From contig JAPPFD010000009.1 in assembly GCA_028823995.1 (NCBI GenBank), positions 20,361-84,360 of the forward strand: a DNA stretch of 64,000 nucleotides, in the 5' to 3' direction. Every line of letters begins with the position of its first letter. Within the stretch, counting starts at the first letter, position 1. Positions 4,260 to 50,326 of this stretch are shown here, one piece after another. Below the pieces are notes generated by a model. The model had not been told where the DNA came from, ran no database searches, and saw only the letters and a program-made list of their open reading frames with translations. A program made the position numbers and the translations under genes. Origin of the DNA: a bacterium. GTDB lineage: Bacteria; Actinomycetota; Acidimicrobiia; Spongiisociales; ZC4RG35.

Positions 4260-4705
4260 CACATGTCGCCCGGAGAGGGCTCGATCCGGACCGGGTCTCC
4301 CACCCGGATGAGGCCGCCCTTCACCACCTGGGCTGCGATGCCGGACCGGCCCTCGAGGGCTTCGCGCGCCCGGGGGCCGACGGTCTCGTTCATCCGCTCG
4401 CACGGCGGGCAGTCCCGCCACACCGACAGGACGGCCTCGCCGAGATGGATCAGGGTGCCGGTGGTGCGGGGGAGGCGATCAGCGTCCACGGTGATGTTGC
4501 GGCGGGTTGCGCCCGCCGGTATGGGGTATCCCAACCGGCCGGCGGCCTCGTCCAGCTCGCCCTCGGCGACCATCGTCACGTTGCGGATGGTGCCCAGGTA
4601 GCGGTCGCCTTCCAGGCCCGCTCCCTCCACCGCCAACACCTCGTTGACCTCGATCGGGTCGGCCTTGTGGAGCGGCGCCAGGTGGAGGTGGGTCACCGAG
4701 GCCAT
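4259..4705 (-). CDS. MOSC domain-containing protein (YiiM-like)
   Basis: GDRY...RRNITVD...CPPCERM...GGL..VGDPV pattern. It begins 4 nt after the nrdJ stop and overlaps the methyltransferase start. Confidence 0.75.
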   Translation of the reverse strand: MASVTHLHLAPLHKADPIEVNEVLAVEGAGLEGDRYLGTIRNVTMVAEGELDEAAGRLGYPIPAGATRRNITVDADRLPRTTGTLIHLGEAVLSVWRDCPPCERMNETVGPRAREALEGRSGIAAQVVKGGLIRVGDPVRIEPSPGDM

Positions 4706-4709
4706 CGGC

Positions 4710-7700
4710 CTAGCTGCAGCCGAGCGAGGCCCCGCAGTTGAGGCAGCGGTAGCAACTCCCGTTGCGGACCGTCATGTGCCCGCACTCGTCGCACATGGGA
4801 GCGTCTCCCATCATCTTGCTCAGGAGGATCTGCGTCGAGGAGGGCATCAAGGCGGTCCCGCCTGCCTCGGCCTGGGGAAAGAGTTGAGAGATCAGGTCGT
4901 CGGTCGCCGGCGAGTCGGCGAACTCGGCGGCTTCCTTCACCGCTTCCAGGTTGTCCTCCTCCTGGGCGGCGGCCAGTGCCAACTGCTGTCCCCGGTCCGA
5001 GACCGTGGGGTGAGGCTCCTCGGGGAGTTCGCTCTGCTCCGGCGTCCTGACCTGGCCCAGGTCTTCCCGTTCCAGGTACTCGATGGCCAGGGCCCGGAAG
5101 ATGTAGTCGACCATGGAAGAGGCCATCTTGATGTTGGGATGGTTCTGCACCAGCCCCCGGGGCTCGAAGGTCTGGTACATGAAGGTGTCCACGAACTCCT
5201 GGAGCGGCACCCCGTACTGGAGGCCCTTGGAGACCGCGATGGCGAAACAGGAGAGGATGCCCCGCAGGGTGGCTCCCTCCTTGGCCAGGTCGATGAACAA
5301 CTCTCCGAGCGTGCCGTCGTTGTACTCGCCGGTGCGGATATAGAGCTTGTGGCCGCCCACCCGGGCCTCCCGGGTCCAGCCTTTCCGGCGGGACGACAGG
5401 AGGAATCGGGGAGGCTTCATGCCCTGGGAGTAGGCCTGGGTGGGGGAGGTCCCCTCCGGGAGGGGCCCGTAGGCCAGGCGCTGTTCGATGCCGAGCGCCT
5501 CGTCGAGTTCCGGCTCGTCCTCACCGGAGGAGTCGTCGCCCGCCGAGGAGAGAGGCTGGGAGGCCTTGGAGCCGTCGCGGTAGAGGGCCATCGACTTGAG
5601 ACCCAGCTTCCAGGACAGGTCGTAGGCGTCCTTGATGTCGTCGGGGCTCACGTCGCTGGGCATGTTGATGGTCTTCGAGATGGCGCCGGAGATGAACGGC
5701 TGGGTGGCGGCCATCATCCGTATGTGCCCGTTGTGGTGGATGAACCGCCGTCCATGGCGACCGTTGCGGTTGGCGGTGTCGAACACCGGAAGGTGCTCTT
5801 CCTTCAGGTGGGGAGCGCCCTCGATCGCCTGGCGGCCGCAGATGTGGTCGCCTGCGGCGTCTATCTGGTCGGAGGTGAAGCCCAGGAATGAGAGGAGGTC
5901 GAAGTCGAGCCGCTGGGACTGGGAGGGTTCAACTCCCAGACGCCGCAGGGTCGGCTCGCCGACCGCCAACACGTTGAAGGCGTGCCGCAGTTCGAACATC
6001 CCCGGCAGGGACTCCTCGATCCGGTCGAGGTCCTCGTCGGTGAAGCCGTGCGCCCGGAGGCTCCTCCGGTTGATGTGGGGAGACCCCTCCAGGGAGGAGG
6101 TGCCCACCACGTAGTCGATGATCTCCCGCTTCTCCTCAGGCGTGTAGCCCAGGGTGTCGAGAGCCGGACCCACCGACTGGTTGACGATCTTGAAGTACCC
6201 GCCTCCCGCCAGTTTCTTGAACTTGACCAGGGCGAAGTCGGGCTCCACGCCGGTGGTGTCGCAATCCATTTGGAGGCCGATCGTTCCGGTCGGCGCAATA
6301 CAACTTATCTGTGCGTTTCGGAAGCCGTGGCGGGCTCCCAGTTCCAGGGCCTCGTCCCAGACCTCGCGGGCGGCCTGGGAAAGGTCCAAGGGGCAGAGCC
6401 GACTGCTGATGCCCATCACCGCCTGGGAGACGCCCTCGTACTCGGAGGCCGGTGCGTCGTAGGCGGCGCGCCGGTGGTTACGGATGACCCGCAGCATGGG
6501 CCGGCGGTTTTCCTCGAAGCGCCGGAAGGGACCGATGACCGAGGCCATCTCCGCGGAGGTGGTGTAGGCCTGGCCGCTGAGGATGGAGGTGAGCGCCCCG
6601 GCTATGGCGCGTCCCCGGCCGGAGTCGTAGGGGATGCCCATCCGCATCAGGAGCGACCCGAGGTTGGCGTACCCCAGCCCCAGGGTGCGATAGTCATAGG
6701 AGCCCTGGGCGATGGCTCTGGAGGGGAAGTGGGCCATGGCCACCGAGATCTCCAGGACCATGGTCCACAGACGGATGGCGTGCAGGTAGCTGTCGATGTC
6801 GAACACGCCTGTGCGGTCGTTGTAGAAGGCAACCAGGTTCACAGAGGCCAGGTTGCAGGCGGTGTTGTCCAGGAACATGTACTCCGAGCAGGGGTTGGAG
6901 CCGCGGATCCGGCCCCCGGCGGGGGAGGTGTGCCACTCGTTGATGGTGGTGTCGAACTGCACTCCCGGGTCGGCGCAGGCCCACGCCGCCTCGGCGATCT
7001 GGTCCCACAGGTGCTCAGCGGAGACGGTCTTCATCACCCGCCCGGTGGTCCGCTCGGTCAACTCCCAGTCGTCGCGGTTCTCCACCGCCCTGACGAAGTC
7101 GTCGGTGACCCGGACGGAGTTGTTGGAGTTCTGCCCGGAGATGGTGGCGTACGCCTCACCGTTGAAGTCGGCGGGGAAGCCTCCCTTCTCGATCAGGAGG
7201 CGGGCCTTGTCCTCCTCCACCTTCTTCCAGTTGATGAACTCCTCCACGTCGGGATGATCGATGTCGAGGATCACCATCTTGGCCGCCCGGCGGGTGGTCC
7301 CCCCCGACTTGATGGCGCCTGCCGCCCGGTCGCCGATCTTGAGGAAGGACATAACTCCGGACGAACTGCCGCCGCCCGAGAGCTTCTCGCCCTCGGCCCG
7401 GATTTCGGAGAAGTTGGAGCCGGCGCCCGAGCCGAACTTGAAGATACGCGCCTCGCGGAGCCACAGGTCCATGATCCCCCCCGGGTTGACCAGGTCGTCC
7501 TCGACCTTGAGAATGAAGCAGGCATGCGGTGCGGGGCGGGAGTAGGAATCGGGGGAGACGGCCAACTCCCCGGTGTCGGGGTCGACGTACCAGAAGCCCT
7601 GTGCGGGGCCGGTCAGCCCGTAGCCCCAGTTGAGGCCGGTGTTGAACCACTGCGGAGAGTTGGGCGAGCCCATCTGGTGACAGAGCATGTACTTCATCTC

Positions 7701-11489: not shown

Positions 11490-11566
<77 letters not shown>

Positions 11567-14728: not shown

Positions 14729-16215
14729 GGGAGCCGGGAAGGAAGCGTCGGCACGACCTCGACGCGCTGAGGGGGTTCGCCATGTTGCTGGGGGTGGGGC
14801 TGCACGCTGCGTTGGCCTTCTTCCCGGCGCCGTGGTGGGTGCAGGACCGGACCTCGAGCTTCGACGGCCCCTACGACGAGTTCCTGTGGGCGGTGCACGG
14901 GTTCCGCATGCCGGTGTTCTTCCTGATGAGCGGGTTCTTCACCGCCCTGCTGTGGCGGCGGCGCGGGCTGCGGTCGCTCCTCGGCCACCGACTGCGGCGG
15001 GTGGCCCTGCCGCTCCTGATCGGCCTGGTGACCCTGGTGCCGGCGGTGGACTGGGTGGGTGAGAGGGCCGTGGTCGCCCAGGCGGAGCCGCTGGTGGAGT
15101 CCGGGGACATCATCGGGTTGGTGTTCGTCGGAGACATTGAAGGGGTGGAGGGGTTGCTGGACCGGGGCGTGGACATCGAGACGCGGACCGAGCCCGGCGG
15201 GTGGACCTCCCTCCATGCCGCCGCGTTCACCGGCAACGCCGAGATGGTGGAGTTGCTCATATCCAGGGGGGCGAAGCCGGCGGTCACCGCCGACGCCTCC
15301 GATGGGGAGACGCCCCTGGGACTTGCCTTCCACTTCGGCCACGAGGAGGCCACCGATCTGCTGGTTGCCCACGAGGGGAGGGATCCCCTTCCCGAGTCGA
15401 TGGAGTGGTCGGACATCCCCGGCTGGGCGGAGGGCGCGGAGGACCCCGAGGAGGACCGGCTGACCCAGATCGAGCACCTCCATCACCTCTGGTTCCTGTG
15501 GTTCCTCCTGTGGCTGGTGGCGGGATTCGCGGTGGTGGCGGCGATCGCCGATCGGCGGGAACCCGGCCGGGGGGTGTGGCCGGGGAGGGTCATGTGGCTG
15601 ATGATCCCATTGACCCTCATCCCGCAGTTGGAGATGGGCGGCGGAGGGTCCTATCCCATCTTCGGGTCGGACACCTCCGACGCGCTCCTGCCCCTTCCCC
15701 ACGTGCTGGCCTACTACGCCACGTTTTTCACGTTCGGAGCGCTGATGTACGGCCGCCGGAACCGGAAGGGAAACCTCCTGGTCGAAACCATCGGCAGGCC
15801 CTGGTGGCTGGTTCTCTCCGTCTCGTTCCTGGTTGTGCTGCCCTTCGGGCTGCATTTCACCTTCGTGGAGTTCCAGTGGCAGGTGGCGTCCGTCTTGCAG
15901 GTGCTCTACGCCTGGGGCATGTGCTTCGGCCTGATGGGGCTGTTCCGGGTGTTGCTGCCCCGGGAACGCCGGGGGATCCGGTATTTGTCCGACTCCGCCT
16001 ATTGGGTCTACCTGGTGCATCTCCCCCTGGTTGTGGCCGCCCAGATGTTGGTCTTCGATTGGGACCTCTTCGCCGGAGTCAAGTTCCTCCTGATCTGTGG
16101 GGTGGTGACGGCCGTCTCTCTCCTCTCCTATCAGGCGTTCGTCCGCTACACGCCGATAGGAGCCATGCTGAACGGAAAGAAGGTCCGTACCGCCCGGTCC
16201 GGAGCCTCTGGCTAG
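14725..16215 (+). CDS. acyltransferase family 3 (OpgC/OafA-like) membrane protein with inserted ankyrin repeats
   Basis: The N-terminus LDALRGFAMLLGVGLHAALAF... and multiple TM helices fit acyltransferase_3. An insert of ~130 aa contains two or three ANK repeats (GWTSLHAAAFTGNAEMVELLISRGAKP; DGETPLGLAFHFGHEEATDLLVAHEG). Confidence 0.75.
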   Translation: MREPGRKRRHDLDALRGFAMLLGVGLHAALAFFPAPWWVQDRTSSFDGPYDEFLWAVHGFRMPVFFLMSGFFTALLWRRRGLRSLLGHRLRRVALPLLIGLVTLVPAVDWVGERAVVAQAEPLVESGDIIGLVFVGDIEGVEGLLDRGVDIETRTEPGGWTSLHAAAFTGNAEMVELLISRGAKPAVTADASDGETPLGLAFHFGHEEATDLLVAHEGRDPLPESMEWSDIPGWAEGAEDPEEDRLTQIEHLHHLWFLWFLLWLVAGFAVVAAIADRREPGRGVWPGRVMWLMIPLTLIPQLEMGGGGSYPIFGSDTSDALLPLPHVLAYYATFFTFGALMYGRRNRKGNLLVETIGRPWWLVLSVSFLVVLPFGLHFTFVEFQWQVASVLQVLYAWGMCFGLMGLFRVLLPRERRGIRYLSDSAYWVYLVHLPLVVAAQMLVFDWDLFAGVKFLLICGVVTAVSLLSYQAFVRYTPIGAMLNGKKVRTARSGASG

Positions 16216-16327
16216 AAGAAAGCCCTGAGGGGCGACGCAGACGAAAAATACATGCCGTTGGTAGGTTGGATTTACTCCGGGACGGTTGGTTTTTTCTCCT
16301 GGTTGAGGATGATGAGAGATGATTTCG

Positions 16328-16419
16328 TCCAAATGATGTAGGATCAATCTTCCGAATAATGTAGGATAGAACCTCCAAATAATGTAGGATAAGCTTTCCG
16401 AATAATGTAGGATAGATCT
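16328..16419. repeat. four tandem 23-bp AT-rich direct repeats (TCCRAATRATGTAGGATNNNNNN)
   Basis: The units are tccaaatgatgtaggatcaatct, tccgaataatgtaggatagaacc, tccaaataatgtaggataagctt and tccgaataatgtaggatagatct. They occupy -124 to -33 relative to the ATG of the DUF4143 ATPase gene. GC is ~35% against a ~68% background. Confidence 0.9.
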
Positions 16420-16451
16420 CGTCTCCTATTGGGGAACCAGTTCCTTAAGCC

Positions 16452-17738
16452 ATGTATCCGACAAGTTCTTCACCTCTGCCGACTTATCGTGATCGGGTCG
16501 TCGACCATGAAATACCGGCTGTCCTAAAAGCGGCGCGGGCCGTCCTCATCGAAGGTCCCAAGGCATGCGGCAAAACCTGGACCGGACAGCGTTTCGCTCG
16601 AAGCGAGGTGTTCTTGGAGGAACGTCCCGACCTCTGGGGGATAGCGACCCAGGCCACGGGGTTGTTGCTCGACGGCGCAACTCCCCGTCTCCTCGACGAG
16701 TGGCAAAGGGTTCCCGATCTCTGGCACCTGGTGCGGGCCGCATGCGATCGACGGGGACTGCCGGGGCAGTTCATTCTCACCGGTTCCGCGGTCCCCACCG
16801 ATGAATTGACCCGACACTCCGGAGCGGGACGTATCAGCCGTGTTCGGATGCGTCCGATGTCGCTCTACGAAATGGGGCTTTCCGCCGGAGAGGTGTCCGT
16901 GGGCGAGATGCTTGAGGGCTTCGAGACCTGGGAGTGCCCTGTGGTTGAGGCGTCTTTGGACGTGCCGGAGTTGGTGGCCGCCGCCTGCCGGGGCGGCTGG
17001 CCTCAATTTATCGATTTTCCCCTGGAGGACGCCATGAGGCAAGTCCGCAGCTATGTAGACAACATATGCCGCGTGGATGTGTCAGTTGTGGACGGTGTCC
17101 GGAGGAGTCCCGAAAGGGTGATGCGTCTGATGCAGTCGTTGGCGCGCAACGTCGCCAATCATGTCGGATTCGACAAGCTCGCCCAGGAGACCGAGGGGCA
17201 AACTCCGCTCAACCGTGGCACGGTCAGGACCTACATGGAGACATTGAGTCGACTGTTCGTGGTGGAGGATCTGCCCGCCTGGAATGTCCATCTTCGGTCG
17301 AGAGGACGTCTACTCAAGGCGCCGAAACGTCATTTCGTGGATCCCTCCCTGGCTCCGGCTGCATTGGGAGTGGGCCCTCGAAGATACTTAGAGGACCTGA
17401 ATGCCTTCGGGTTCCTTCTCGAGTCGATGGCGGTGCGCGACTTGCGCGTCTACGCCCAGGCTCACGACGCCTCGGTCTATTACTACCGGGACTACGGCGG
17501 CTTGGAGGTAGACGCGGTGATCGAGGCTCGGGACGGGCGCTGGATCGCGGCCGAGGTCAAACTGGGCGGGTCCGAGGCCATCGACCAGGGGGCGGCGGCC
17601 TTGCTGAAGTTGCGGGATCGGGTTACCGAACGACGGGCTGCCCGTCTTGCCCGGTTGCTGGTCATAACCGGAGGCCGGTACAGCTACGTCCGTCCTGACG
17701 GGGTGGCGGTGGTTCCACTGGCGGTGCTGGGCCCGTAA
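16452..17738 (+). CDS. AAA-family ATPase with DUF4143 C-terminal domain (COG1373-like)
   Basis: Walker A LIEGPKACGKTW with the layout typical of the 'ATP-binding protein' AAA_14/DUF4143 family. Confidence 0.8.
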   Translation: MYPTSSSPLPTYRDRVVDHEIPAVLKAARAVLIEGPKACGKTWTGQRFARSEVFLEERPDLWGIATQATGLLLDGATPRLLDEWQRVPDLWHLVRAACDRRGLPGQFILTGSAVPTDELTRHSGAGRISRVRMRPMSLYEMGLSAGEVSVGEMLEGFETWECPVVEASLDVPELVAAACRGGWPQFIDFPLEDAMRQVRSYVDNICRVDVSVVDGVRRSPERVMRLMQSLARNVANHVGFDKLAQETEGQTPLNRGTVRTYMETLSRLFVVEDLPAWNVHLRSRGRLLKAPKRHFVDPSLAPAALGVGPRRYLEDLNAFGFLLESMAVRDLRVYAQAHDASVYYYRDYGGLEVDAVIEARDGRWIAAEVKLGGSEAIDQGAAALLKLRDRVTERRAARLARLLVITGGRYSYVRPDGVAVVPLAVLGP

Positions 17739-17756
17739 CCGGCTCCGCCGGTCAGA

Positions 17757-18164
17757 TCACCAGACCGGTTCTATGTCCAGGTCGGCCAGGAGGCCCCGCA
17801 CCCGGTGTTCGAGGTCGTCGCGGATGGGACGGATCTCCCCCAGTGTCCGACCGGCAGGGTCGTCCACCTCCCAGTCGAGATAGCGCTTGGCGGGATAGAC
17901 GGGGCAGGCGTCGCCGCACCCCATGGTCACCACCACGTCGGCGGCCCGGACGATCTCGTCCGACCACGGCCGGGGCATTTCTCCCCTGATGTCGATGCCC
18001 TTCTCCAGCATGGCCTGGGCGGCGGCGGGGTTGATTTCCTGGGCGGGCTCCGACCCGCCGCTGAACACCTCGACCCTTCCTCCGGCCAGCAACCGCATGA
18101 ACCCGGCCGCCATCTGTGACCTTCCGGCGTTGTGCAGACAAAGGAATAGGACGGTGGGGTTCAA
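17757..18164 (-). CDS. arsC: arsenate reductase / LMW protein-tyrosine phosphatase family (thioredoxin-coupled ArsC type)
   Basis: The P-loop CLHNAGRS (Cys10) plus TMGCGDACP (Cys82/Cys89) form the catalytic triad of Bacillus-type ArsC. There is no arsR, arsB or acr3 neighbour. Confidence 0.75.
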   Translation of the reverse strand: MNPTVLFLCLHNAGRSQMAAGFMRLLAGGRVEVFSGGSEPAQEINPAAAQAMLEKGIDIRGEMPRPWSDEIVRAADVVVTMGCGDACPVYPAKRYLDWEVDDPAGRTLGEIRPIRDDLEHRVRGLLADLDIEPVW

Positions 18165-18260
18165 CGGAGTGTGGGAAGGAATCGCGGCCCCATGGTATCA
18201 CTTTTGGTGCCAGACGCCTCTCCAATATGATTCGAAAACAGGAGGAATGAAAAGTAGCGG

Positions 18261-20344: not shown

Positions 20345-20529
20345 CCTCCCTTCCAGCGGGAGGATGAGGTCCGACGGACAGGCTTTTTAGCTGTGCCCCT
20401 CCCTGTCGTGGAGCCAAGCAGAGTGCTACTACTAACCCAAATACGGCCGACCGGGACGATGAATAACGATTGGGTAGCCACCGCGCACTGTCACAACCCC
20501 GTGTTACCTTGTGGATTGATGGAAGTCGT

Positions 20530-21759
20530 ATGACCACCTATTCGCCTGCCTCTTCGCTTGGGTGGCTCGACTTCGACGCCGCCGCCACAGAGCGAGTCGC
20601 CACGCTGTTGCGCTCACTCCAAGAGCCCACCACGCTGGATGTCCTAGGTCTGGGATCGGTGCGCGACGCTTTCTCCGGAATGCTGCACCCCGGCACTTCG
20701 TACATCCAGACAAAGCTGCGGTATTTCATGTTCCTGCCATGGACATTTCAGCGCATTGAACAGGACCAGGTTGCACCCGGAGATTTCTTCCAGCGCCTTC
20801 GCCACGATGAGGCCCTGCTCATCGACTGTCTGCGCCATCTGGGACCCGGTAATCGAGTGATCGGCTTCCAGGCCGGTAGAAACTTGAAGCGTATGCCCAG
20901 TTCCATCTACTGGGGAGGACTCGGGGACTGGGGACTGCGACGACTGCCCCTGAGCCTGGGCGAGTACGCACAGCGGGCAGCCGCCCTGGGCCGGTACCGG
21001 GCGGCGCGCGATGACGACGGCATCGTTACGGACCCAAGCAGTTCGATGTGGGCCCCGCTGCCGCCTGCTCCCGAGGGATTCCTGGAGGCCGACATCACCT
21101 TCAAGTTGAGGAGCGTGGAGGCCGCCACCATAGTCGAGAACATTCGGCATCGGCAGGGGGACACCCTTCTGGCCTGGTTGTTGACCCAGCCACACCTCGC
21201 CGCCGGCTGCGACTTTCCATGGGAGGTGTCCAGCCACGGCATGCGCGCGGAACTAACCGATGTGGTTCGCCACGCCCGGTGCTTCTCCGAGTTGACCGCC
21301 GGTCCGCAGTACGCCTACAACGTCCTGGTGGCGCGCCGGGCTCGACAGGAGCTCGGTTGGGACACCGCCAGGCTGTTGGAGGGCCAACTCGGTCGCCTGC
21401 AGCGCTGGGTCGAGATGGTCCAGAGTCGCCACGGGGAACTTTTATCCTGGGTCGACGACCTGCCAGCATTCTGGAAGCTTCTTGATAGGTACCGCATCCG
21501 GCGGAGTACCCGTGACTTTATTGCCGGGATCGTCCGTACGGCCGTTGACAATCCTGAGGGGTTCGAGCAAGATTCGACGGTTCATGAGCAGATCCGCCTT
21601 CGGGAGATCCGGTTGAAGGGGAAGCGGGCCCGTCTGGCTTACCGCGCCGCACTGGAGAACTGGAACCAAACTGCGGCCGGCGGCCAGCTCGGGTACCGGT
21701 GGTCCATCGCTAAGAACTACATTGGCGAGATCGCCGACGCGTTGGCGGGTGGCCGCTGA
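20530..21759 (+). CDS. hypothetical protein, first gene of the PLD/SNF2 operon (409 aa)
   Basis: The ATG at 20530 has GGAAG 5 nt upstream. I recognise no catalytic motif (FMFLPWTFQRIE, IYWGGLGDWGLRRL). Its stop overlaps the start of the PLD gene (TGATG at 21757-21761). Confidence 0.5.
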   Translation: MTTYSPASSLGWLDFDAAATERVATLLRSLQEPTTLDVLGLGSVRDAFSGMLHPGTSYIQTKLRYFMFLPWTFQRIEQDQVAPGDFFQRLRHDEALLIDCLRHLGPGNRVIGFQAGRNLKRMPSSIYWGGLGDWGLRRLPLSLGEYAQRAAALGRYRAARDDDGIVTDPSSSMWAPLPPAPEGFLEADITFKLRSVEAATIVENIRHRQGDTLLAWLLTQPHLAAGCDFPWEVSSHGMRAELTDVVRHARCFSELTAGPQYAYNVLVARRARQELGWDTARLLEGQLGRLQRWVEMVQSRHGELLSWVDDLPAFWKLLDRYRIRRSTRDFIAGIVRTAVDNPEGFEQDSTVHEQIRLREIRLKGKRARLAYRAALENWNQTAAGGQLGYRWSIAKNYIGEIADALAGGR

Positions 21760-23642
21760 TGCTACTGCCGACCAACCGGCTGACGCTGATCGATGCGATG
21801 CGCCCCCCGGCCGGATTCGGGTTGGAGTCCGCCATGGCGGTGACGTTCACCCTTAACTTGAGCGCACTTCTAGCGGCGCCCGCCGCCTTCGCCCTTGCCG
21901 GCCTGCGGGATACCACTGGTGATGCCAGTGGGTCTACGCCAGTGGAGCTGGTTCACGCACTTCGTGCTCATGCTCACAAACTCACCGTCTTCAGCGAGGC
22001 CGGCGGGATCAGTTTGCCGCCGCCCAGCAGGGCATTCGCCTTTCTGGAGCGGGCGGTGGTCCCGGTCAGGGCCCCCGGAGGAGGGATCGTGCATCCCAAA
22101 GTCTGGGTGCTGCGCTACCAGCCATCTGATGATTCAAGGGGCGGCGACCCGGCTGCGCAGTGCCTTCGCGTGCTTATCGCCAGTCGCAATCTGACCTTCG
22201 ACGAGAGTTGGGACACTCTGTTAAGACTTGATCAGACGCCAGACACTCGCGGCGCGAGGCTGGACGGGGTGGGGAGACTGTTCAGGGGTCTGCTCGACGC
22301 TGCCGTTGGGAGAGTAGAAACAGAGCACGCAGACCGGGTGCGCTTGCTGTCCGAAGCTCTCCAGGACGCACGGTTCGAGTTACCAGCGGGCGTTGATGAC
22401 CTGGCGATCCATCTGTTTGGCCTCGGAGAGGCGTCCCCGCCATTCCCAAGGGATCCCGAGCGCGCGCTGATCATTTCACCCTTTCTGACCGACGACTTCT
22501 TCGGAGGGGTGTATCCCGGGCGGGTGGACACGCTGGTCAGCCGGCAGGAGGCACTCGACGGGCTGCAGGAGGGCACTCTCGGCTCCATCCAGAACAAGTA
22601 CGTCTTCGACGACGGCAGCCCTTTCGAACACGCGGAACCAGTCGGCGGACGCACCCAGGAGGACAATGGCGAACACCCCGGCGCCGCCGCACCACCGGCG
22701 CCGTCACCCGCCGACCCCGGCCGGCCCCTGGTCGGAGTCCACGCCAAGGTCTTCGCCTTCGAGACGGGAGATCGGATCAGACTGTTCGTCGGGTCGGCCA
22801 ACGCCACCGGCCCTGCTTTCGGCGGCAACGTCGAGATACTGGCCGAACTCGGAGGGTCGGTCTCCGATTTGGGGATCGATCGACTCTGTGGCGGCGATGG
22901 GGAGGATCATGGGTTGCTCAGCCTGTTCCGCGACTACCACCGGGTCGTGGTGGAAGACGGCAATGGGAACGGCGTCTCCATCCTTGACCGGACGCGTCGT
23001 CGTATTGCTCGCCTTCCTATGGTGGGAGTAGTGGAGGGCACCGGTGAAGGAGACAACGAGTGGGCCGTGACCTACCGCTCGGATGAGTCCGTGCCTGCCG
23101 TGGAGGGGGTCGAGATTCACTGCTGGCCGCTGACCACTCCCGGCAATCGGCGGCAGGTCGGGACGGCCGGGCCCTTCGAGGCGCGTTTTGAGACAACCCT
23201 GGAGGCTCTCAGCAGTTTTCTGGCATTCGAACTGACCCATGAGAGCGGTGAGCAGACGGGATTCGTGGTCCCCGTGCCGCTGGACGGAGTGCCCGAGCAC
23301 CGGATCCGACGCTTGGTTGGAGTGCTGATCGGCAATGCCGAGCGGTTCCTGCGTTATCTGGTGGCGCTCCTGTACGACGACTCCGATCAACTCGACCTCC
23401 AAGAAGTCTCCAGGACTCTTGACCGATCGGTATCCGATGGGACTGGCTCGATCAGCTTTGCAGTGCTGGAACGGTTGCTGCGAACCATGAGGAGCGATCC
23501 GAGGAGACTTGAGGGACTGCACCCACTGATCGCCGATCTTCGGGCTGACGATGCATTGCCGCCGGGCTTTGCCGAACTCTGGGACGCCATCTACGACGTG
23601 GCTATTAAATGTACTTGTCAAAAGGGCGCCAACCTGCCATGA
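21759..23642 (+). CDS. phospholipase D-superfamily (two-HKD) nuclease-like protein
   Basis: A degenerate first HKD motif, HPKVWVLRY...VLIASRNLT, is followed by a canonical second motif, GVHAKVFAFETGDRIRLFVGSANATGPAF (HxK-x4-D-x6-GSxN). This resembles Nuc/NgoFVII/DrmC-type PLD nucleases. The stop overlaps the helicase start (ATGA at 23639-23642). Confidence 0.7.
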   Translation: MLLPTNRLTLIDAMRPPAGFGLESAMAVTFTLNLSALLAAPAAFALAGLRDTTGDASGSTPVELVHALRAHAHKLTVFSEAGGISLPPPSRAFAFLERAVVPVRAPGGGIVHPKVWVLRYQPSDDSRGGDPAAQCLRVLIASRNLTFDESWDTLLRLDQTPDTRGARLDGVGRLFRGLLDAAVGRVETEHADRVRLLSEALQDARFELPAGVDDLAIHLFGLGEASPPFPRDPERALIISPFLTDDFFGGVYPGRVDTLVSRQEALDGLQEGTLGSIQNKYVFDDGSPFEHAEPVGGRTQEDNGEHPGAAAPPAPSPADPGRPLVGVHAKVFAFETGDRIRLFVGSANATGPAFGGNVEILAELGGSVSDLGIDRLCGGDGEDHGLLSLFRDYHRVVVEDGNGNGVSILDRTRRRIARLPMVGVVEGTGEGDNEWAVTYRSDESVPAVEGVEIHCWPLTTPGNRRQVGTAGPFEARFETTLEALSSFLAFELTHESGEQTGFVVPVPLDGVPEHRIRRLVGVLIGNAERFLRYLVALLYDDSDQLDLQEVSRTLDRSVSDGTGSISFAVLERLLRTMRSDPRRLEGLHPLIADLRADDALPPGFAELWDAIYDVAIKCTCQKGANLP

Positions 23643-26600
23643 CCGAGCAACGCATCGATGTGGCCGCGGCGTTGGCGGACCTGAAGGACTTTCAGCGGCG
23701 TACGGCTGAATGGGCGTTCGAGCGCATGTTCGCGGATCACGATCCTGCACTCCGGTTTCTGGTGGCCGACGAAGTTGGCCTCGGCAAGACCCATGTCGCC
23801 AAGGGGGTGATAGCGCAGGTCATCGACTACCTTGGGCGAACGGGTGATAGGCGCCATGATGTCGTCTATGTGTGCTCGAACGCTGCCATCCTTCGCCAAA
23901 ACCTCAGAAAGCTCACGCCCGAAGGTATAGAGCCGACAATCGTGGAGGTCGACCGGCTCACGATGCTCCCTCAAGTCGAGCTAAAGGAGGAACACGAAGG
24001 AAGACCAGGCATCAACCTATTGGGGATATCGCCGGGCACATCGCTGCGGTTCGGCCGCAACACAGGCACATTCCCGGAACGGGCCCTTGCCTATACGTTC
24101 CTTCGATCCCACTGGGGCTGGAGTGCTATGAAGAAGCGCCGAGCCCGCTGGATTTTCTGGTTAGGCATCACAGCAGGTGATCTTGACGCGCGGCTCAGGG
24201 CATGCGAACGCTGGTATCGCCCACGCATCACGGGAGCGTTGCCCGAGTTCGCCAAACGGCTCGAGGAGTTGGACACCGAGCGACGGACAAACGGACAGCA
24301 ACCAATTCGGGCATTATTTGAGGAAATTGTCGACGGACTCAGGTACAAACGTTCTTTCCCCCGCCGGATTCGGACACTGCAAGGAGAATTGATAGCGGAA
24401 CTACGCCGTGTGATGGCCATCGTCGGTATTGATGCGCTTCGCCCTGACCTCATTGTGCTGGACGAGTTTCAGCGATTCAAAGATTTGCTCCATTCTCATC
24501 CCGACAACCTGGCCGCAGAACTTGCCAAAAGGCTGTTCGAATACGAGGACCCAGAGAGCGGCCGACCAACCCGCACTCTGTTGCTCTCCGCCACCCCCTA
24601 CCGCATGTACACCACCGCCGACGACGCCGACGACGATCATTACACGGACTTCCTGGATACGTGCCGGTTTCTCTACGGGGATTCCGGGCGTGTCGAGGGA
24701 CTACGGCGCCGGTTTGCTGATCTCCGCCGGACGCTCACCACCTTGGGGGCGTTCGAAGACACCGAGATGGCGTTGAACACTGCGGCGGACATCTGCGGGA
24801 AGATCGGTTCGGAGTTGCGGCAGGTAATGGCCCGGACTGAACGGCTGGCCGCCACTCCCGACCGAGACGGGATGCTCGGGGACCACGTAGTACCGGCGTC
24901 GGTGGGGCCCGACGACCTACGATCGTATCTCCGGTTCGGCGAGATCTCCCGGGTCGTGGGGTATCCCGATCCCACCGAGTACTGGAAATCGGCGCCGTAC
25001 CTGATCAACTTCATGGAACGTTACAAGCTCAAACAAGCCGTGGAGCAGGCCGCCGAGGCGGGCCGGTTCCTCGACAGCGGCCTGCTCGAGCAGGGTCCGG
25101 GACTGTTGAGTTGGGAGGAGGTGGAGCGTTACCGGGCCATCGACCCTCAGAACGGGCGGCTACGGTGGCTGCTGGAAGACCTGCAGGGCTCCCGGGCCTT
25201 CGAGATTCTGTGGGTGCCGCCGTCAATCCGCTACTACAACACGGGATCGGTCTATGAATCCGAAGAGACCCACAGGTTTACCAAGCGATTGATCTTCTCG
25301 GGTTGGGTGATTGTCCCGAAAGTGGTGTCGTCGCTGGTCAGCTTCGAGGCCGAGCGCCGGGCTTATCGGGACCGCCACCACAAATACACGGCCCAGTACC
25401 GACGGCGCGGGGGCGGGCGGCTGACATTCCGCACCACCGAGCGGACCGCCGGTGATCGCCGCTCCGGGGAAGCCACCGGCGACCGGCGCGCCGCCTCGAT
25501 GACCACCCTGTTGCTCTGCTGGCCGAGCATCACCCTCGCTCAACTGGGGGATCCCCTGCATTTGGATACCGCAACGCGGGACCGCCCCGATGTGATCGCC
25601 TCCATCACTAAGTGGGTTGAGGCCGCCTTCGCACCATTGGCGGGCTCTGCGCCCTCCGAAGGTGCGGTTGACCAACGGTGGTACTGGGCCGCCCCGATGC
25701 TGCTCGACTACCGGGACTACCCAGAGGTCGTTCGTCAGCTGCTGTCCGATCAGTCGGCGTGGCTCGGGGAGGGAGGACGGCCCGACCAGAACTTCCGAGC
25801 GCACCTCGCCGAAGCCTGGACATTGCTCGACCACGGTGTCGAAGCCCTAGGTCGGCCTCCTGAGGACCTCTATATGGTGCTAGCCGAACTGGCGCTAGGA
25901 GGGCCGGCCCAGTGCGCGCTCCGGGCAATCCGCCGAGTGGTGGGCCTGCCGCACGATCACCGGGCGATGACGGCCAGCGCGGCCCTGATCAGCGAGGCCT
26001 TCCGGAGTTTCTTCAACGCCCCGGAGGTCACGGCCATAGTCGCCGGTGACCAAACGGAGCACACGGAGTCCGAGCAAGCGGCTCCGGTTGTCGGCCGATA
26101 CTGGCGCGACGTGGCGGCTCACTGTGTAGATGGCAATCTGCAGGCAGTACTCGATGAGCACGCTCATGTTCTCCGAGATTGGCTGGGATATGTCAGACTG
26201 GGCGACTCTGCACAACGGGCCGAGGCCGCCGAAGACATCGCCGGAAGGATCGGCGGGTCCCTGCGACTTCGAACCTCGGCCCTGCGGGTGGACATTCCTC
26301 GTCGGACCGACGATGGCCAGGCGGAGGTTCTCTCTGTGAGCCGCATGCGCACCCGCTTCGCGGTGACCTTCGGCGACCAGGCGCTCGACGAGGGCGGCCA
26401 GGCGCGGGTGGGCGCCGTGTCGGTCGCCTTCAATTCGCCGTTCTGGCCGTTCGTGTTGGCTTCTACCTCGGTTGGGCAGGAAGGACTGGACTTTCACCTG
26501 TGGTGCCATGCCGTGGTGCATTGGAACCTTCCGACCAGTCCGGTGGATCTCGAACAGCGCGAGGGTCGGGTCCATCGCTACAAATGCCATGCGGTTCGTC

Positions 26601-26965
26601 GGAACATCGCCGAAACGTTCGGGCCTGAAGTCCTGAGGGCGGGAGAGCCCGAAGGTGATCTCTGGCAGGCCCTCTTCGACCGAGCGGCATCCGAGGGAGG
26701 ATCCGACGACGGGGAGATGGCGCCCTATTGGGTGTTTCACCAAGGCCAAGCAAAGATCGACCGTTTGGTACCCATGCTGCCCTTCAGCCGCGAGTCGGCG
26801 AGACTTCCACGACTGCGGAAGTCCCTCGCCATCTACCGCCTCGCCTTCGGCCAGCCCCGCCAGGAGGAACTGGTCGAACTGTTGAGCGATCGCATCAGTT
26901 CCGACGACCTGCGCGGTCGGCTCTCGGAACTGCGGATCGACCTGGCGCCTCCACCCGTAAACTAA
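23639..26965 (+). CDS. SNF2-like superfamily-2 helicase/ATPase (1108 aa)
   Basis: Motif I is LVADEVGLGKTHVAKG and motif II is LIVLDEFQRFKDL. The helicase C lobe has STSVGQEGLDFH (motif V) and LEQREGRVHRYK (motif VI). The I-II spacing of ~225 aa is unusually long, and a further ~550-aa insertion precedes the C lobe. Confidence 0.8.
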   Translation: MTEQRIDVAAALADLKDFQRRTAEWAFERMFADHDPALRFLVADEVGLGKTHVAKGVIAQVIDYLGRTGDRRHDVVYVCSNAAILRQNLRKLTPEGIEPTIVEVDRLTMLPQVELKEEHEGRPGINLLGISPGTSLRFGRNTGTFPERALAYTFLRSHWGWSAMKKRRARWIFWLGITAGDLDARLRACERWYRPRITGALPEFAKRLEELDTERRTNGQQPIRALFEEIVDGLRYKRSFPRRIRTLQGELIAELRRVMAIVGIDALRPDLIVLDEFQRFKDLLHSHPDNLAAELAKRLFEYEDPESGRPTRTLLLSATPYRMYTTADDADDDHYTDFLDTCRFLYGDSGRVEGLRRRFADLRRTLTTLGAFEDTEMALNTAADICGKIGSELRQVMARTERLAATPDRDGMLGDHVVPASVGPDDLRSYLRFGEISRVVGYPDPTEYWKSAPYLINFMERYKLKQAVEQAAEAGRFLDSGLLEQGPGLLSWEEVERYRAIDPQNGRLRWLLEDLQGSRAFEILWVPPSIRYYNTGSVYESEETHRFTKRLIFSGWVIVPKVVSSLVSFEAERRAYRDRHHKYTAQYRRRGGGRLTFRTTERTAGDRRSGEATGDRRAASMTTLLLCWPSITLAQLGDPLHLDTATRDRPDVIASITKWVEAAFAPLAGSAPSEGAVDQRWYWAAPMLLDYRDYPEVVRQLLSDQSAWLGEGGRPDQNFRAHLAEAWTLLDHGVEALGRPPEDLYMVLAELALGGPAQCALRAIRRVVGLPHDHRAMTASAALISEAFRSFFNAPEVTAIVAGDQTEHTESEQAAPVVGRYWRDVAAHCVDGNLQAVLDEHAHVLRDWLGYVRLGDSAQRAEAAEDIAGRIGGSLRLRTSALRVDIPRRTDDGQAEVLSVSRMRTRFAVTFGDQALDEGGQARVGAVSVAFNSPFWPFVLASTSVGQEGLDFHLWCHAVVHWNLPTSPVDLEQREGRVHRYKCHAVRRNIAETFGPEVLRAGEPEGDLWQALFDRAASEGGSDDGEMAPYWVFHQGQAKIDRLVPMLPFSRESARLPRLRKSLAIYRLAFGQPRQEELVELLSDRISSDDLRGRLSELRIDLAPPPVN

Positions 26966-50171: not shown

Positions 50172-50326
50172 TTTCTGGCAGTGTAAGGAAAAAGGTGTGA
50201 AAAACGGATGGATTTATGGGCCCGCAGGGGGTCCGAACATGAAAGTGCCCGGCCAATTGGCCGCTCGTCGGGTTGGGTCACTGGCAACCGGAGGTAGGGT
50301 GGGCAAGGTCATCTAGGCTTTGGCTC

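Follow-up and report, generated by a model that had tools for sequence, protein, structure and literature searches.

In this study, we used comparative sequence analysis and structure prediction to examine an AT-rich repeat array in a 64-kb stretch of DNA from a bacterium of the Acidimicrobiia (GenBank assembly GCA_028823995.1, contig JAPPFD010000009.1); this whole stretch is called the window here, and coordinates given without a locus name are window positions. Four 23-bp direct repeats stand immediately upstream of a gene for a 428-aa AAA_14/DUF4143 ATPase-nuclease (16452–17738, +), which PADLOC assigns to the candidate defence system PDC-S01. That this four-unit array is a real element specific to the DUF4143 family is, in our view, practically certain. 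Arrays with the same period and a unit sequence private to clade and paralog precede DUF4143 genes in bacteria and archaea, and the 23-bp-period array is, as far as upstream sequences tell, a family-wide hallmark of these genes. We consider it likely that the ATPase binds the array, and we favor, with somewhat less confidence, the full autoregulatory explanation in which the repeats are iteron-like operators to which the gene's product binds.

The units lie head to tail, without spacers, at 16328–16350 (TCCAAATGATGTAGGATCAATCT), 16351–16373 (TCCGAATAATGTAGGATAGAACC), 16374–16396 (TCCAAATAATGTAGGATAAGCTT), and 16397–16419 (TCCGAATAATGTAGGATAGATCT), all on the + strand and with exactly the positions and sequences given in the original prediction, which was made from this DNA alone. 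That prediction was also right that 32 nt separate the end of the array from the start codon of the ATPase gene (ATG at 16452) and that the intergenic span is 16216–16451, the upstream open reading frame (ORF) stopping at 16215. Pairwise identity among the four units is 17 to 21 of 23 positions. Against a position weight matrix (PWM) derived from ortholog units, they score 26.9, 32.0, 29.3, and 34.5, with the gene-proximal unit 4 giving the array maximum and the best match to the clade consensus. Tandem Repeats Finder (TRF) reports a period of 23 with 3.8 copies and a score of 105, as well as a 46-bp period with a 90% match, and because the units alternate in this A/B fashion, the array probably grew by duplication of a two-unit block. 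A possible degenerate extra unit, weak, out of the 23-bp register, and below the PWM threshold, lies at 16303–16312 (+; TTGAGGATGA), and the 32 nt between array and ATG (16420–16451, +), where orthologs have ...TTGGGRA... in common, probably form a short 5′ leader. When the 14-mer core was searched with up to three mismatches, five matches were found in the window against 0.34 expected; four of these are the array, and the fifth is a three-mismatch chance match. GC content is 34.8% in the array, 44.1% in the intergenic region, 62.7% in the ATPase ORF, and 65.6% in the window; the array is thus AT-rich as originally described, whereas the earlier figures of 35 to 40% for the intergenic region and ∼68% for the genome did not hold, and the copies share one DNA face only approximately, a 23-bp period being ∼2.2 helical turns. 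A CRISPR array was ruled out, as the units abut without unique spacers and no cas families occur among the neighboring genes scanned.

The array is shared by the orthologous loci. In a set of orthologs with 70 to 97% protein identity (L002 to L007 and L009 to L017, several of them syntenic), all loci examined carry two to nine related units directly upstream of the ATPase gene, so the comparison of upstream regions proposed with the original prediction came out in its favor, and the random microsatellite-like expansion that it had held out as the alternative is contradicted by this conservation. The 57 distinct ortholog units give the consensus yCnrAAwwnTGTrGGATrrnT, in which a core of the form TGTAGGAT, TGTGGGAT, TGCAGGAT, or TGTAGAAT is preceded by yCnrAAww and followed by rrAT. 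Conservation covers about 21 of the 23 unit positions and reaches well beyond the hexamer TAGGAT, and the core is conserved while the flanks diverge. Neighboring units are spaced by 23 bp in 35 of 45 cases, by 28 bp in four, and by 22 bp in two; the last core begins 33 to 46 nt before the start codon (at −46 in the window), and the proximal unit has the top PWM score in most orthologs. Block duplication occurs in these arrays, with a block of 46 bp in the window and one of 74 bp in L004. Scanning 280 kb with the clade PWM (the window plus 14 orthologous loci, with a reach of ∼20 kb per genome) returned 62 strong sites, all within arrays, and three weak matches outside them; with no other copy in the 64-kb window either, we reject a genome-wide dispersal or regulon of the repeat.

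The 23-bp period extends far beyond these orthologs. In 80 loci of relatives with 40 to 86% identity, we compared the 300 nt preceding the gene with themselves, without gaps, at every lag from 8 to 60 and recorded the lag with the best match. The best lag was 23 in 53 genes and 46 in eight, together 61 of 80 (76%), compared with 2% (8/400) of random segments from the same loci and 5.5% (13/237) of lowest-GC windows, some of which proved to precede further DUF4143 paralogs. TRF independently gives a period of 23 in ∼32 loci, and across 1.48 Mb, lag-23 segments number 39 versus 6, 1, and 1 at lags 22, 25, and 26, with three of the extra lag-23 segments standing before further DUF4143 paralogs. 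The period is found in Actinomycetota, Bacteroidota, Bacillota, Spirochaetota, Synergistota, and Thermoplasmatota archaea; it occurs in 12 of 15 IMG/VR relatives from low-GC hosts, in the Bacteroides uniformis plasmid pBUN1, in a Methanomethylophilaceae archaeon and a spirochaete, and in relatives from Methanoplasma, Cloacibacillus, and Lachnospiraceae. Loci that fail the lag score mostly keep two units 23 bp apart by eye, as in the mycobacterial CAnAAACTGTAG. If two or more direct repeats with a period of 23 bp, the last of them ending no farther than ∼50 nt from the start codon, are taken to define the family pattern, the window carries four such units.

Several further arrays were seen in this survey. 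A truncated DUF4143 paralog of 273 aa that lacks the AAA+ part (L046, 6723–7544, −) keeps a three-unit 23-bp array at 7578–7638. Arrays with a unit beginning TGCAATnCATGCA, like that of the L046 DUF4143 array, lie at 7670–7709 in L019 and 14149–14214 in L055, adjoining ORFs without a Pfam match or no ORF at all; they may be orphaned or may precede undetected or decayed paralogs. When metagenomes were scanned for TGTAGRAT-type cores repeated three times in a row at 23-bp spacing, at least 120 contigs matched; among the matches listed, one is a high-GC ortholog (L128) and five are distant DUF4143 loci, and the remainder are generic 23-bp tandem arrays on unrelated contigs of low GC content, in most cases with no ORF beside the array. 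In L132, L122, L136, L156, L227, and ∼110 other listed contigs, such tandem arrays reach at least 37 units with TGTAGAAT or TGTAGGAT, and most of these contigs lack DUF4143. The scan says little about extra targets of the ATPase, because it returned mainly unrelated 23-bp tandem arrays, whose tandem copies are not independent.

The unit sequence itself differs from clade to clade, with CTGTAGGCC, GAACGCGCT, ACATCAGACGAC, GCCACTTTAGTGGC, GTACGATCCC, ATTGCAAACGC, and GCCAAATTTCCAA in different clades, GTCGAAAGTTTGCTAA in the archaeal unit, and CACTTATACAAATTTGTCAAAGC in the spirochaetal one. Paralogs within the same genome also keep the period and differ in their motifs: each of the three JAJDTF paralogs (L023, L052, and L063) has a motif of its own, as does each of the two paralogs of L041, which lie 4 kb apart, and the same is seen in JAJEBN, JAJDZE, L044, and L046. 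Motif sharing declines steadily as protein identity declines, and mycobacterial and acidimicrobial proteins at ∼50% identity still have CAnAAACTGT in common. Among the neighboring genes compared across clades, none is conserved, and the ATPase gene is the sole constant partner of the array. It is because of this constancy, and because a host factor would hardly be common to archaea and six bacterial phyla or differ between the paralogs of one cell, that we take the ATPase to be the probable binder. Two suggestions of the original prediction gain support here, with the binding being presumed in both: that the ATPase itself could bind the repeats, and that they are operators or iterons of some oligomeric DNA-binding protein. 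The array is conserved before orthologous ATPase genes, and 23-bp arrays accompany DUF4143 genes throughout the family.

The ATPase has a plausible sequence-reading module and a plausible oligomerizing ATPase, judging from its structure model. The ORF matches the Pfam families AAA_14 (E value, 9.7e-12; 45.5 bits, gathering cut-off 27) and DUF4143 (E value, 1.4e-34; 119.6 bits, gathering cut-off 28.1) and the PADLOC PDC-S01 model PDLC04790 (E value, 5.4e-67; residues 12 to 426 on model positions 11 to 417 of 422). An AlphaFold2 model from 121 sequences, including archaeal and Firmicutes relatives (pLDDT, 91.7; pTM, 0.92), superseded an earlier one from 42 close homologs (pLDDT, 67.6) whose Foldseek matches were meaningless. 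In domain order, it shows an AAA+ core (aa 16 to 135; 16497–16856, +), a helical lid, a winged helix (aa 220 to 296; 17109–17339, +; helices 220 to 232, 240 to 245, and 255 to 267), and, with high confidence, a C-terminal PD-(D/E)xK nuclease domain (aa 316 to 428; 17397–17735, +). Across the 121 sequences, G35, C39, G40, K41, and T42 of the Walker A motif (GPKACGKT, aa 35 to 42) are invariant, as is D354 of the nuclease motif, with E368 and K370 at least 90% conserved; the basic wing of the winged helix (HLRSRGRLLKAPKRH) contains an invariant R282 as well as K292 and R293, both at least 90% conserved. DUF4143 has previously been placed in the PD-(D/E)XK class (PMC3424549).

The best Foldseek matches of the model in the PDB are the archaeal Walker ATPase PABY2304 (2qen; E value, 1.7e-6), ORC/Cdc6 proteins, including the DNA-bound 2qby_B (E value, 2.1e-5), RuvB, and STAND proteins (RPP1, CED-4, and MalT, 8bob_C); RuvB, ORC/Cdc6, and p97 are matches of the AAA+ core, and the ATPase-lid-winged-helix layout is common to PABY2304, ORC/Cdc6, RuvB, and the STAND matches. 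The ORC/Cdc6 chains are found at E values of ∼2e-5 but with TM scores of 0.21 to 0.25, and no match exists at the sequence level. No relative with a solved structure came up when the PDB was searched by sequence, either with the protein alone or with a profile, the isolated winged-helix segment matched only DUF4143 in Pfam, and NCBIfam has no model for the ATPase. An Orc1/Cdc6 protomer covers roughly two helical turns through its winged-helix and AAA+ domains, and by analogy a 23-bp footprint per protomer would be compatible with such coverage. PDC-S01 is a defence candidate found by “guilt by embedding” with validation pending, like most such candidates; one survey ranks it fourth commonest across prokaryotes, with ∼39,000 instances, and the family spreads horizontally (PMC12988326). 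The literature on DUF4143, COG1373, PDC-S01, and AAA_14 that we searched knows the family as an abundant untested candidate only and describes no upstream array.

The position of the array points to the gene's own promoter. In the window, the promoter must overlap the array, because only 32 nt separate the array from the ATG. TAnnnT is the actinobacterial type of −10 hexamer, and unit 4 contains TAGGAT (16408–16413, +), 39 nt before the ATG, which as a putative −10 is the only credible one in the window; a generic scan for a σ70 consensus promoter found none. The last unit holds TAGGAT or TAGAAT in all eight of eight loci compared (the window, L002 to L007, and L011), and distal units often have TGGGAT, CAGGAT, or CGGGAT instead. 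In low-GC bacteria, arrays abut or overlap a recognizable −35/−10 pair (L106 among them): in L091, TTGCAA-N17-TATAAT follows straight after the last unit, so that the array abuts the −35; L099 is similar; and in L090 and L232 the last core occupies the spacer, immediately ahead of TATAAT. The Bacteroides array is followed by TTTG...TAtaTTTG, and the last unit of archaeon L086 contains the TATA-like TTTAAAG, ∼25 nt before the start. These geometries would fit control of the ATPase gene's own transcription, and for the clade of the window, repression is the simplest reading. The “dedicated promoter” of the original prediction is partly borne out, by the conserved −10-like hexamer in the last unit.

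Taken together, we propose that a single protomer or dimer of the DUF4143 ATPase-nuclease would dock on each 23-bp unit and recognize it through its winged helix, perhaps aided by a contact of another of its domains, and that neighboring protomers would be aligned every 23 bp. Because the array covers the core promoter—in the clade of the window, the last unit carries the −10-like TAGGAT—its occupancy would set the gene's own transcription, most likely as negative autoregulation of a potentially toxic nuclease. The ATPase as binder, its cooperative, in-register binding, and the repressive effect are all things that we infer. Several observations weigh against this proposal or limit its reach. 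Phylogeny confounds the parallel divergence of motif and protein, and the protein columns that are constant within motif groups but vary between them, as candidates for specificity-determining residues, are dispersed and do not clearly concentrate in the winged helix. No array is seen in Thermus L109, the eye finds just a short core in Agrobacterium L107 and in Marinobacter L108, and one Nanopelagicales/Bifidobacterium clade has a 25-bp palindrome, not direct repeats. Where a σ70 promoter is recognizable, some arrays abut the −35, a geometry that activators use too, so that regulation might be positive there, and the ∼20 kb per genome covered by the PWM scan leave room for other genomic targets. 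The palindrome of the Nanopelagicales/Bifidobacterium clade, perfect and located at ∼−70 to −40 from the start codon in L067, L069, L070, L072, and L075 (CTAGTTCCGATA-T-TATCGGAACTAG), is a different operator layout within the same DUF4143 family.

The array could also be more than an operator. We speculate, tentatively and with a rather low probability in mind, that it might be a private docking strip for each DUF4143/PDC-S01 gene, on which the ATPase-nuclease would polymerize in the 23-bp register, typically over three units, as an inactive ORC/STAND-like oligomer parked on self DNA. Such a cis-anchored assembly would be the resting state of an immune sensor, which infection cues would release or remodel, and the specificities of repeat and protein would coevolve as in iteron-Rep pairs, so that many paralogs could coexist without cross talk.

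Among the explanations in which the ATPase does not read the array as an operator, the units could be operators for a separate host transcription factor, such as the ArsR/MarR-LMWPc fusion found near some relatives. L004 and L005 indeed encode an HTH_5/MarR-like-LMWPc protein two genes downstream, and that the ATPase binds DNA sequence specifically is something that we only infer. Yet the window has a perfect array and no HTH-LMWPc genes, the neighbors in other clades are unrelated, archaea and six bacterial phyla with no such factor in common have the same 23-bp architecture, and the paralogs of one genome have different motifs, which together make this explanation improbable.

Alternatively, the ATPase could be the replication initiator or loader of a cryptic integrated replicon, with the AT-rich array as its origin. 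The fold resembles Orc1/Cdc6, the direct-repeat period is typical of plasmid iterons, the array is AT-rich (34.8% GC) and next to the gene, and the family is one that spreads horizontally (PMC12988326). However, the chromosomal position is conserved and syntenic, most members have only two to four units, which lie on the promoter and end ∼30 nt from the start codon, and the protein has an intact nuclease motif rather than a helicase-loading partner. The expected origin features are also lacking at this locus: a DnaA box is matched just once in the 64-kb window, at 50196, and nowhere beside the array; GC skew is positive across the whole window, with no polarity switch at the array; and the repeats are all direct, with no second, inverted array and no repeat copies flanking the ATPase gene. 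In view of the missing DnaA boxes, skew switch, and inverted arrays, we reject a replication origin for this locus, and we consider the initiator explanation as a whole quite improbable.

We are about as skeptical of a stack of duplicated −10-like (TAGGAT) or UP-like AT-rich promoter modules that would raise transcription in a high-GC genome with no dedicated binder. TAGGAT and TAGAAT do fit the actinobacterial TAnnnT, the last unit always keeps the hexamer, and since 23 is 6 plus 17, the hexamer of the previous unit falls at the −35 position. But the units of most other clades (GAACGCGCT, ACATCAGACGAC, GCCAAATTTCCAA, and others) keep the 23-bp period without any −10-like hexamer, the ∼21 of 23 conserved positions include those outside the hexamer, and the generic promoter scan was negative, so that we give this explanation little credit.

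An element acting at the RNA level, be it a structured leader or a GGA-motif, CsrA-type protein-sponge RNA, has in its favor the AGGA in each unit and the placement of the array directly before the start codon. It is rejected as a very remote prospect: the fold is less stable than shuffled sequences (z = +1.18), no Rfam match is found even at an E value of 1, GGA is not conserved, as proximal units of orthologs read TAGAAT, and a fixed 23-nt period with freely changing sequence fits the geometry of the DNA helix and not RNA. Finally, neutral slippage or microsatellite-like expansion without function, to which growth by block duplication (46-bp A/B in the window, the 74-bp block in L004) and the many unrelated 23-bp tandem arrays in metagenomes might point, is effectively refuted by the core that is conserved across orthologs while flanks diverge, the fixed position relative to the start codon, and the lag-23 excess of 76% over 2 to 5% in controls across two domains of life.

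As to its genomic setting, the ATPase gene holds a stable chromosomal position, because its synteny is conserved in relatives. An identical protein is encoded in the metagenome-assembled genome GCA_028819835.1, and sponge-associated Acidimicrobiia are the closest relatives. In the window, an acyltransferase-ankyrin gene lies upstream and an ABC transporter, then a ZacABC operon, downstream; in relatives of 84 to 86% identity, the order is acyltransferase/PTP, ATPase, one or more LMWPc phosphatases, and ABC transporter. The original prediction had read the repeats as a signature of acquired DNA, and this is not supported: the locus does not look recently acquired, with synteny kept, a GC content of the ATPase gene (62.7%) near that of the window (65.6%), and only the intergenic array being AT-rich. 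Nor did the dispersion, plasmid origin, or integrative-element context that it had proposed to look for emerge in the 64-kb window and the orthologous loci. The sole RNA gene found in the window, a tRNA-Met (CAT) at 11490–11566 (+), lies ∼5 kb upstream of the array, and its context gives no sign of an integration junction near the ATPase. Transposon ends were likewise rejected as an identity of the repeats, as there is no inverted copy of the array beyond the ATPase gene. Repeats of that other kind do exist at an insertion sequence (IS)-like element in L035, whose transposase has rve and Mu-transpos_C_2 domains (4706–6013): one of its ends carries two 23-bp-spaced copies of CGATCAyTGAAAwTCCCCAC, and the opposite end carries their reverse complement (4572–4614 and 6810–6851), with the repeat also present in L030 (91–131); this element, too, has multiple terminal binding sites spaced two turns apart.

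Where relatives L003 to L005 have an LMWPc phosphatase gene or a pair of them, including one with a fused ArsR/MarR-type helix-turn-helix (HTH), the corresponding part of the window (17739–18260) holds only a 157-aa ORF (17752–18225, −) without a Pfam match, and nothing is called on the identical contig L001; the phosphatase genes have probably been deleted or have decayed in the window. Further downstream, 2.7 kb from the PDC-S01 ATPase, lies a complete candidate ZacABC defence operon (20470–26965, +), in which PADLOC recognizes three codirectional ORFs: ZacA (DUF6361; E value, 2e-98), ZacB (E value, 7e-133), and the helicase-like ZacC (E value, 0). Because of this proximity, the region around the ATPase looks like a small defence island. 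In sponge-symbiont Acidimicrobiia, DUF4143 paralogs are often within a few kilobases of each other (L008, 1–175 and 3001–4302; L041; L044), sometimes beside PIN-domain genes and ISL3 transposases, which suggests local clusters of DUF4143 paralogs in these organisms.

An array that travels with its gene across bacteria and archaea as a cis element predicts that the ATPase is a sequence-specific DNA binder, that it oligomerizes with a 23-bp footprint per unit, and that it controls its own dosage. What seemed an odd AT-rich repeat in the window would then be a conserved regulatory part of a defence-island gene. Lag-23 repeats ending ∼30 to 45 nt before the start codon are, moreover, a simple genomic signature, which can help to fix the start codons and promoters of tens of thousands of DUF4143 genes.

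Several known systems share part of this architecture. One is that of plasmid iterons and their Rep proteins (R6K π, pPS10 RepA, P1 RepA, and RK2 TrfA), in which head-to-tail repeats with a period of ∼22 to 23 bp likewise lie beside the gene of their binder, are specific to their Rep partner, and are recognized through winged helices; iterons can also overlap the rep promoter and autoregulate it. The period of 23 and the 3.8 copies in the window agree with the ∼22-bp tandem direct repeats of plasmid iterons. Unlike a Rep-family initiator, however, the protein here has only AAA_14 and DUF4143 as Pfam matches and combines AAA+, lid, winged helix, and PD-(D/E)xK domains, and in contrast to iteron origins, the locus is chromosomal and syntenic, with neither DnaA boxes beside the array nor a skew change. 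Archaeal Orc1/Cdc6 proteins on their origin recognition boxes (ORBs; PDB 2qby) resemble the modeled ATPase in the AAA+-lid-winged-helix layout (Foldseek E value, 2.1e-5) and likewise have a gene beside its sites in an AT-rich spacer; ORBs, though, are usually inverted around an unwinding element, whereas the repeats here are direct and lie on a promoter, and the ATPase has an extra C-terminal nuclease domain and no detectable sequence similarity to Orc1/Cdc6.

STAND/AAA transcription factors, such as MalT on MalT boxes and AfsR/SARP, form NTP-dependent oligomers on tandem direct repeats abutting or overlapping the −35, as would be the case here, and MalT (8bob_C) is among the fold matches of the ATPase model. 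In contrast to the ATPase, MalT and AfsR use LuxR- or OmpR-type DNA-binding domains and are activators that regulate other operons; here, the sites that were found are confined to the promoter of the ATPase gene itself, and a nuclease is part of the protein. The GGATGA in some units, which recalls the MalT-box core, is taken to be a coincidence, since the protein has no LuxR-type domain. The C-protein operators of restriction-modification systems and the promoters of toxin-antitoxin systems follow the logic proposed here, of a potentially toxic defence gene checked by its own product or partner within a self-contained, horizontally moving module, but they use short palindromes to which small HTH dimers bind, whereas here two to nine direct 23-bp units would be bound by the 48-kDa effector itself. 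Since the defining protein families and origin features of these systems were tested for and, apart from the Foldseek matches to ORC/Cdc6, are absent, the array is not a member of the Rep-iteron, Orc1/Cdc6-ORB, MalT/AfsR, or C-protein/toxin-antitoxin families; its mode of working would, by analogy, be that of an iteron or operator array read by the product of the adjacent gene.

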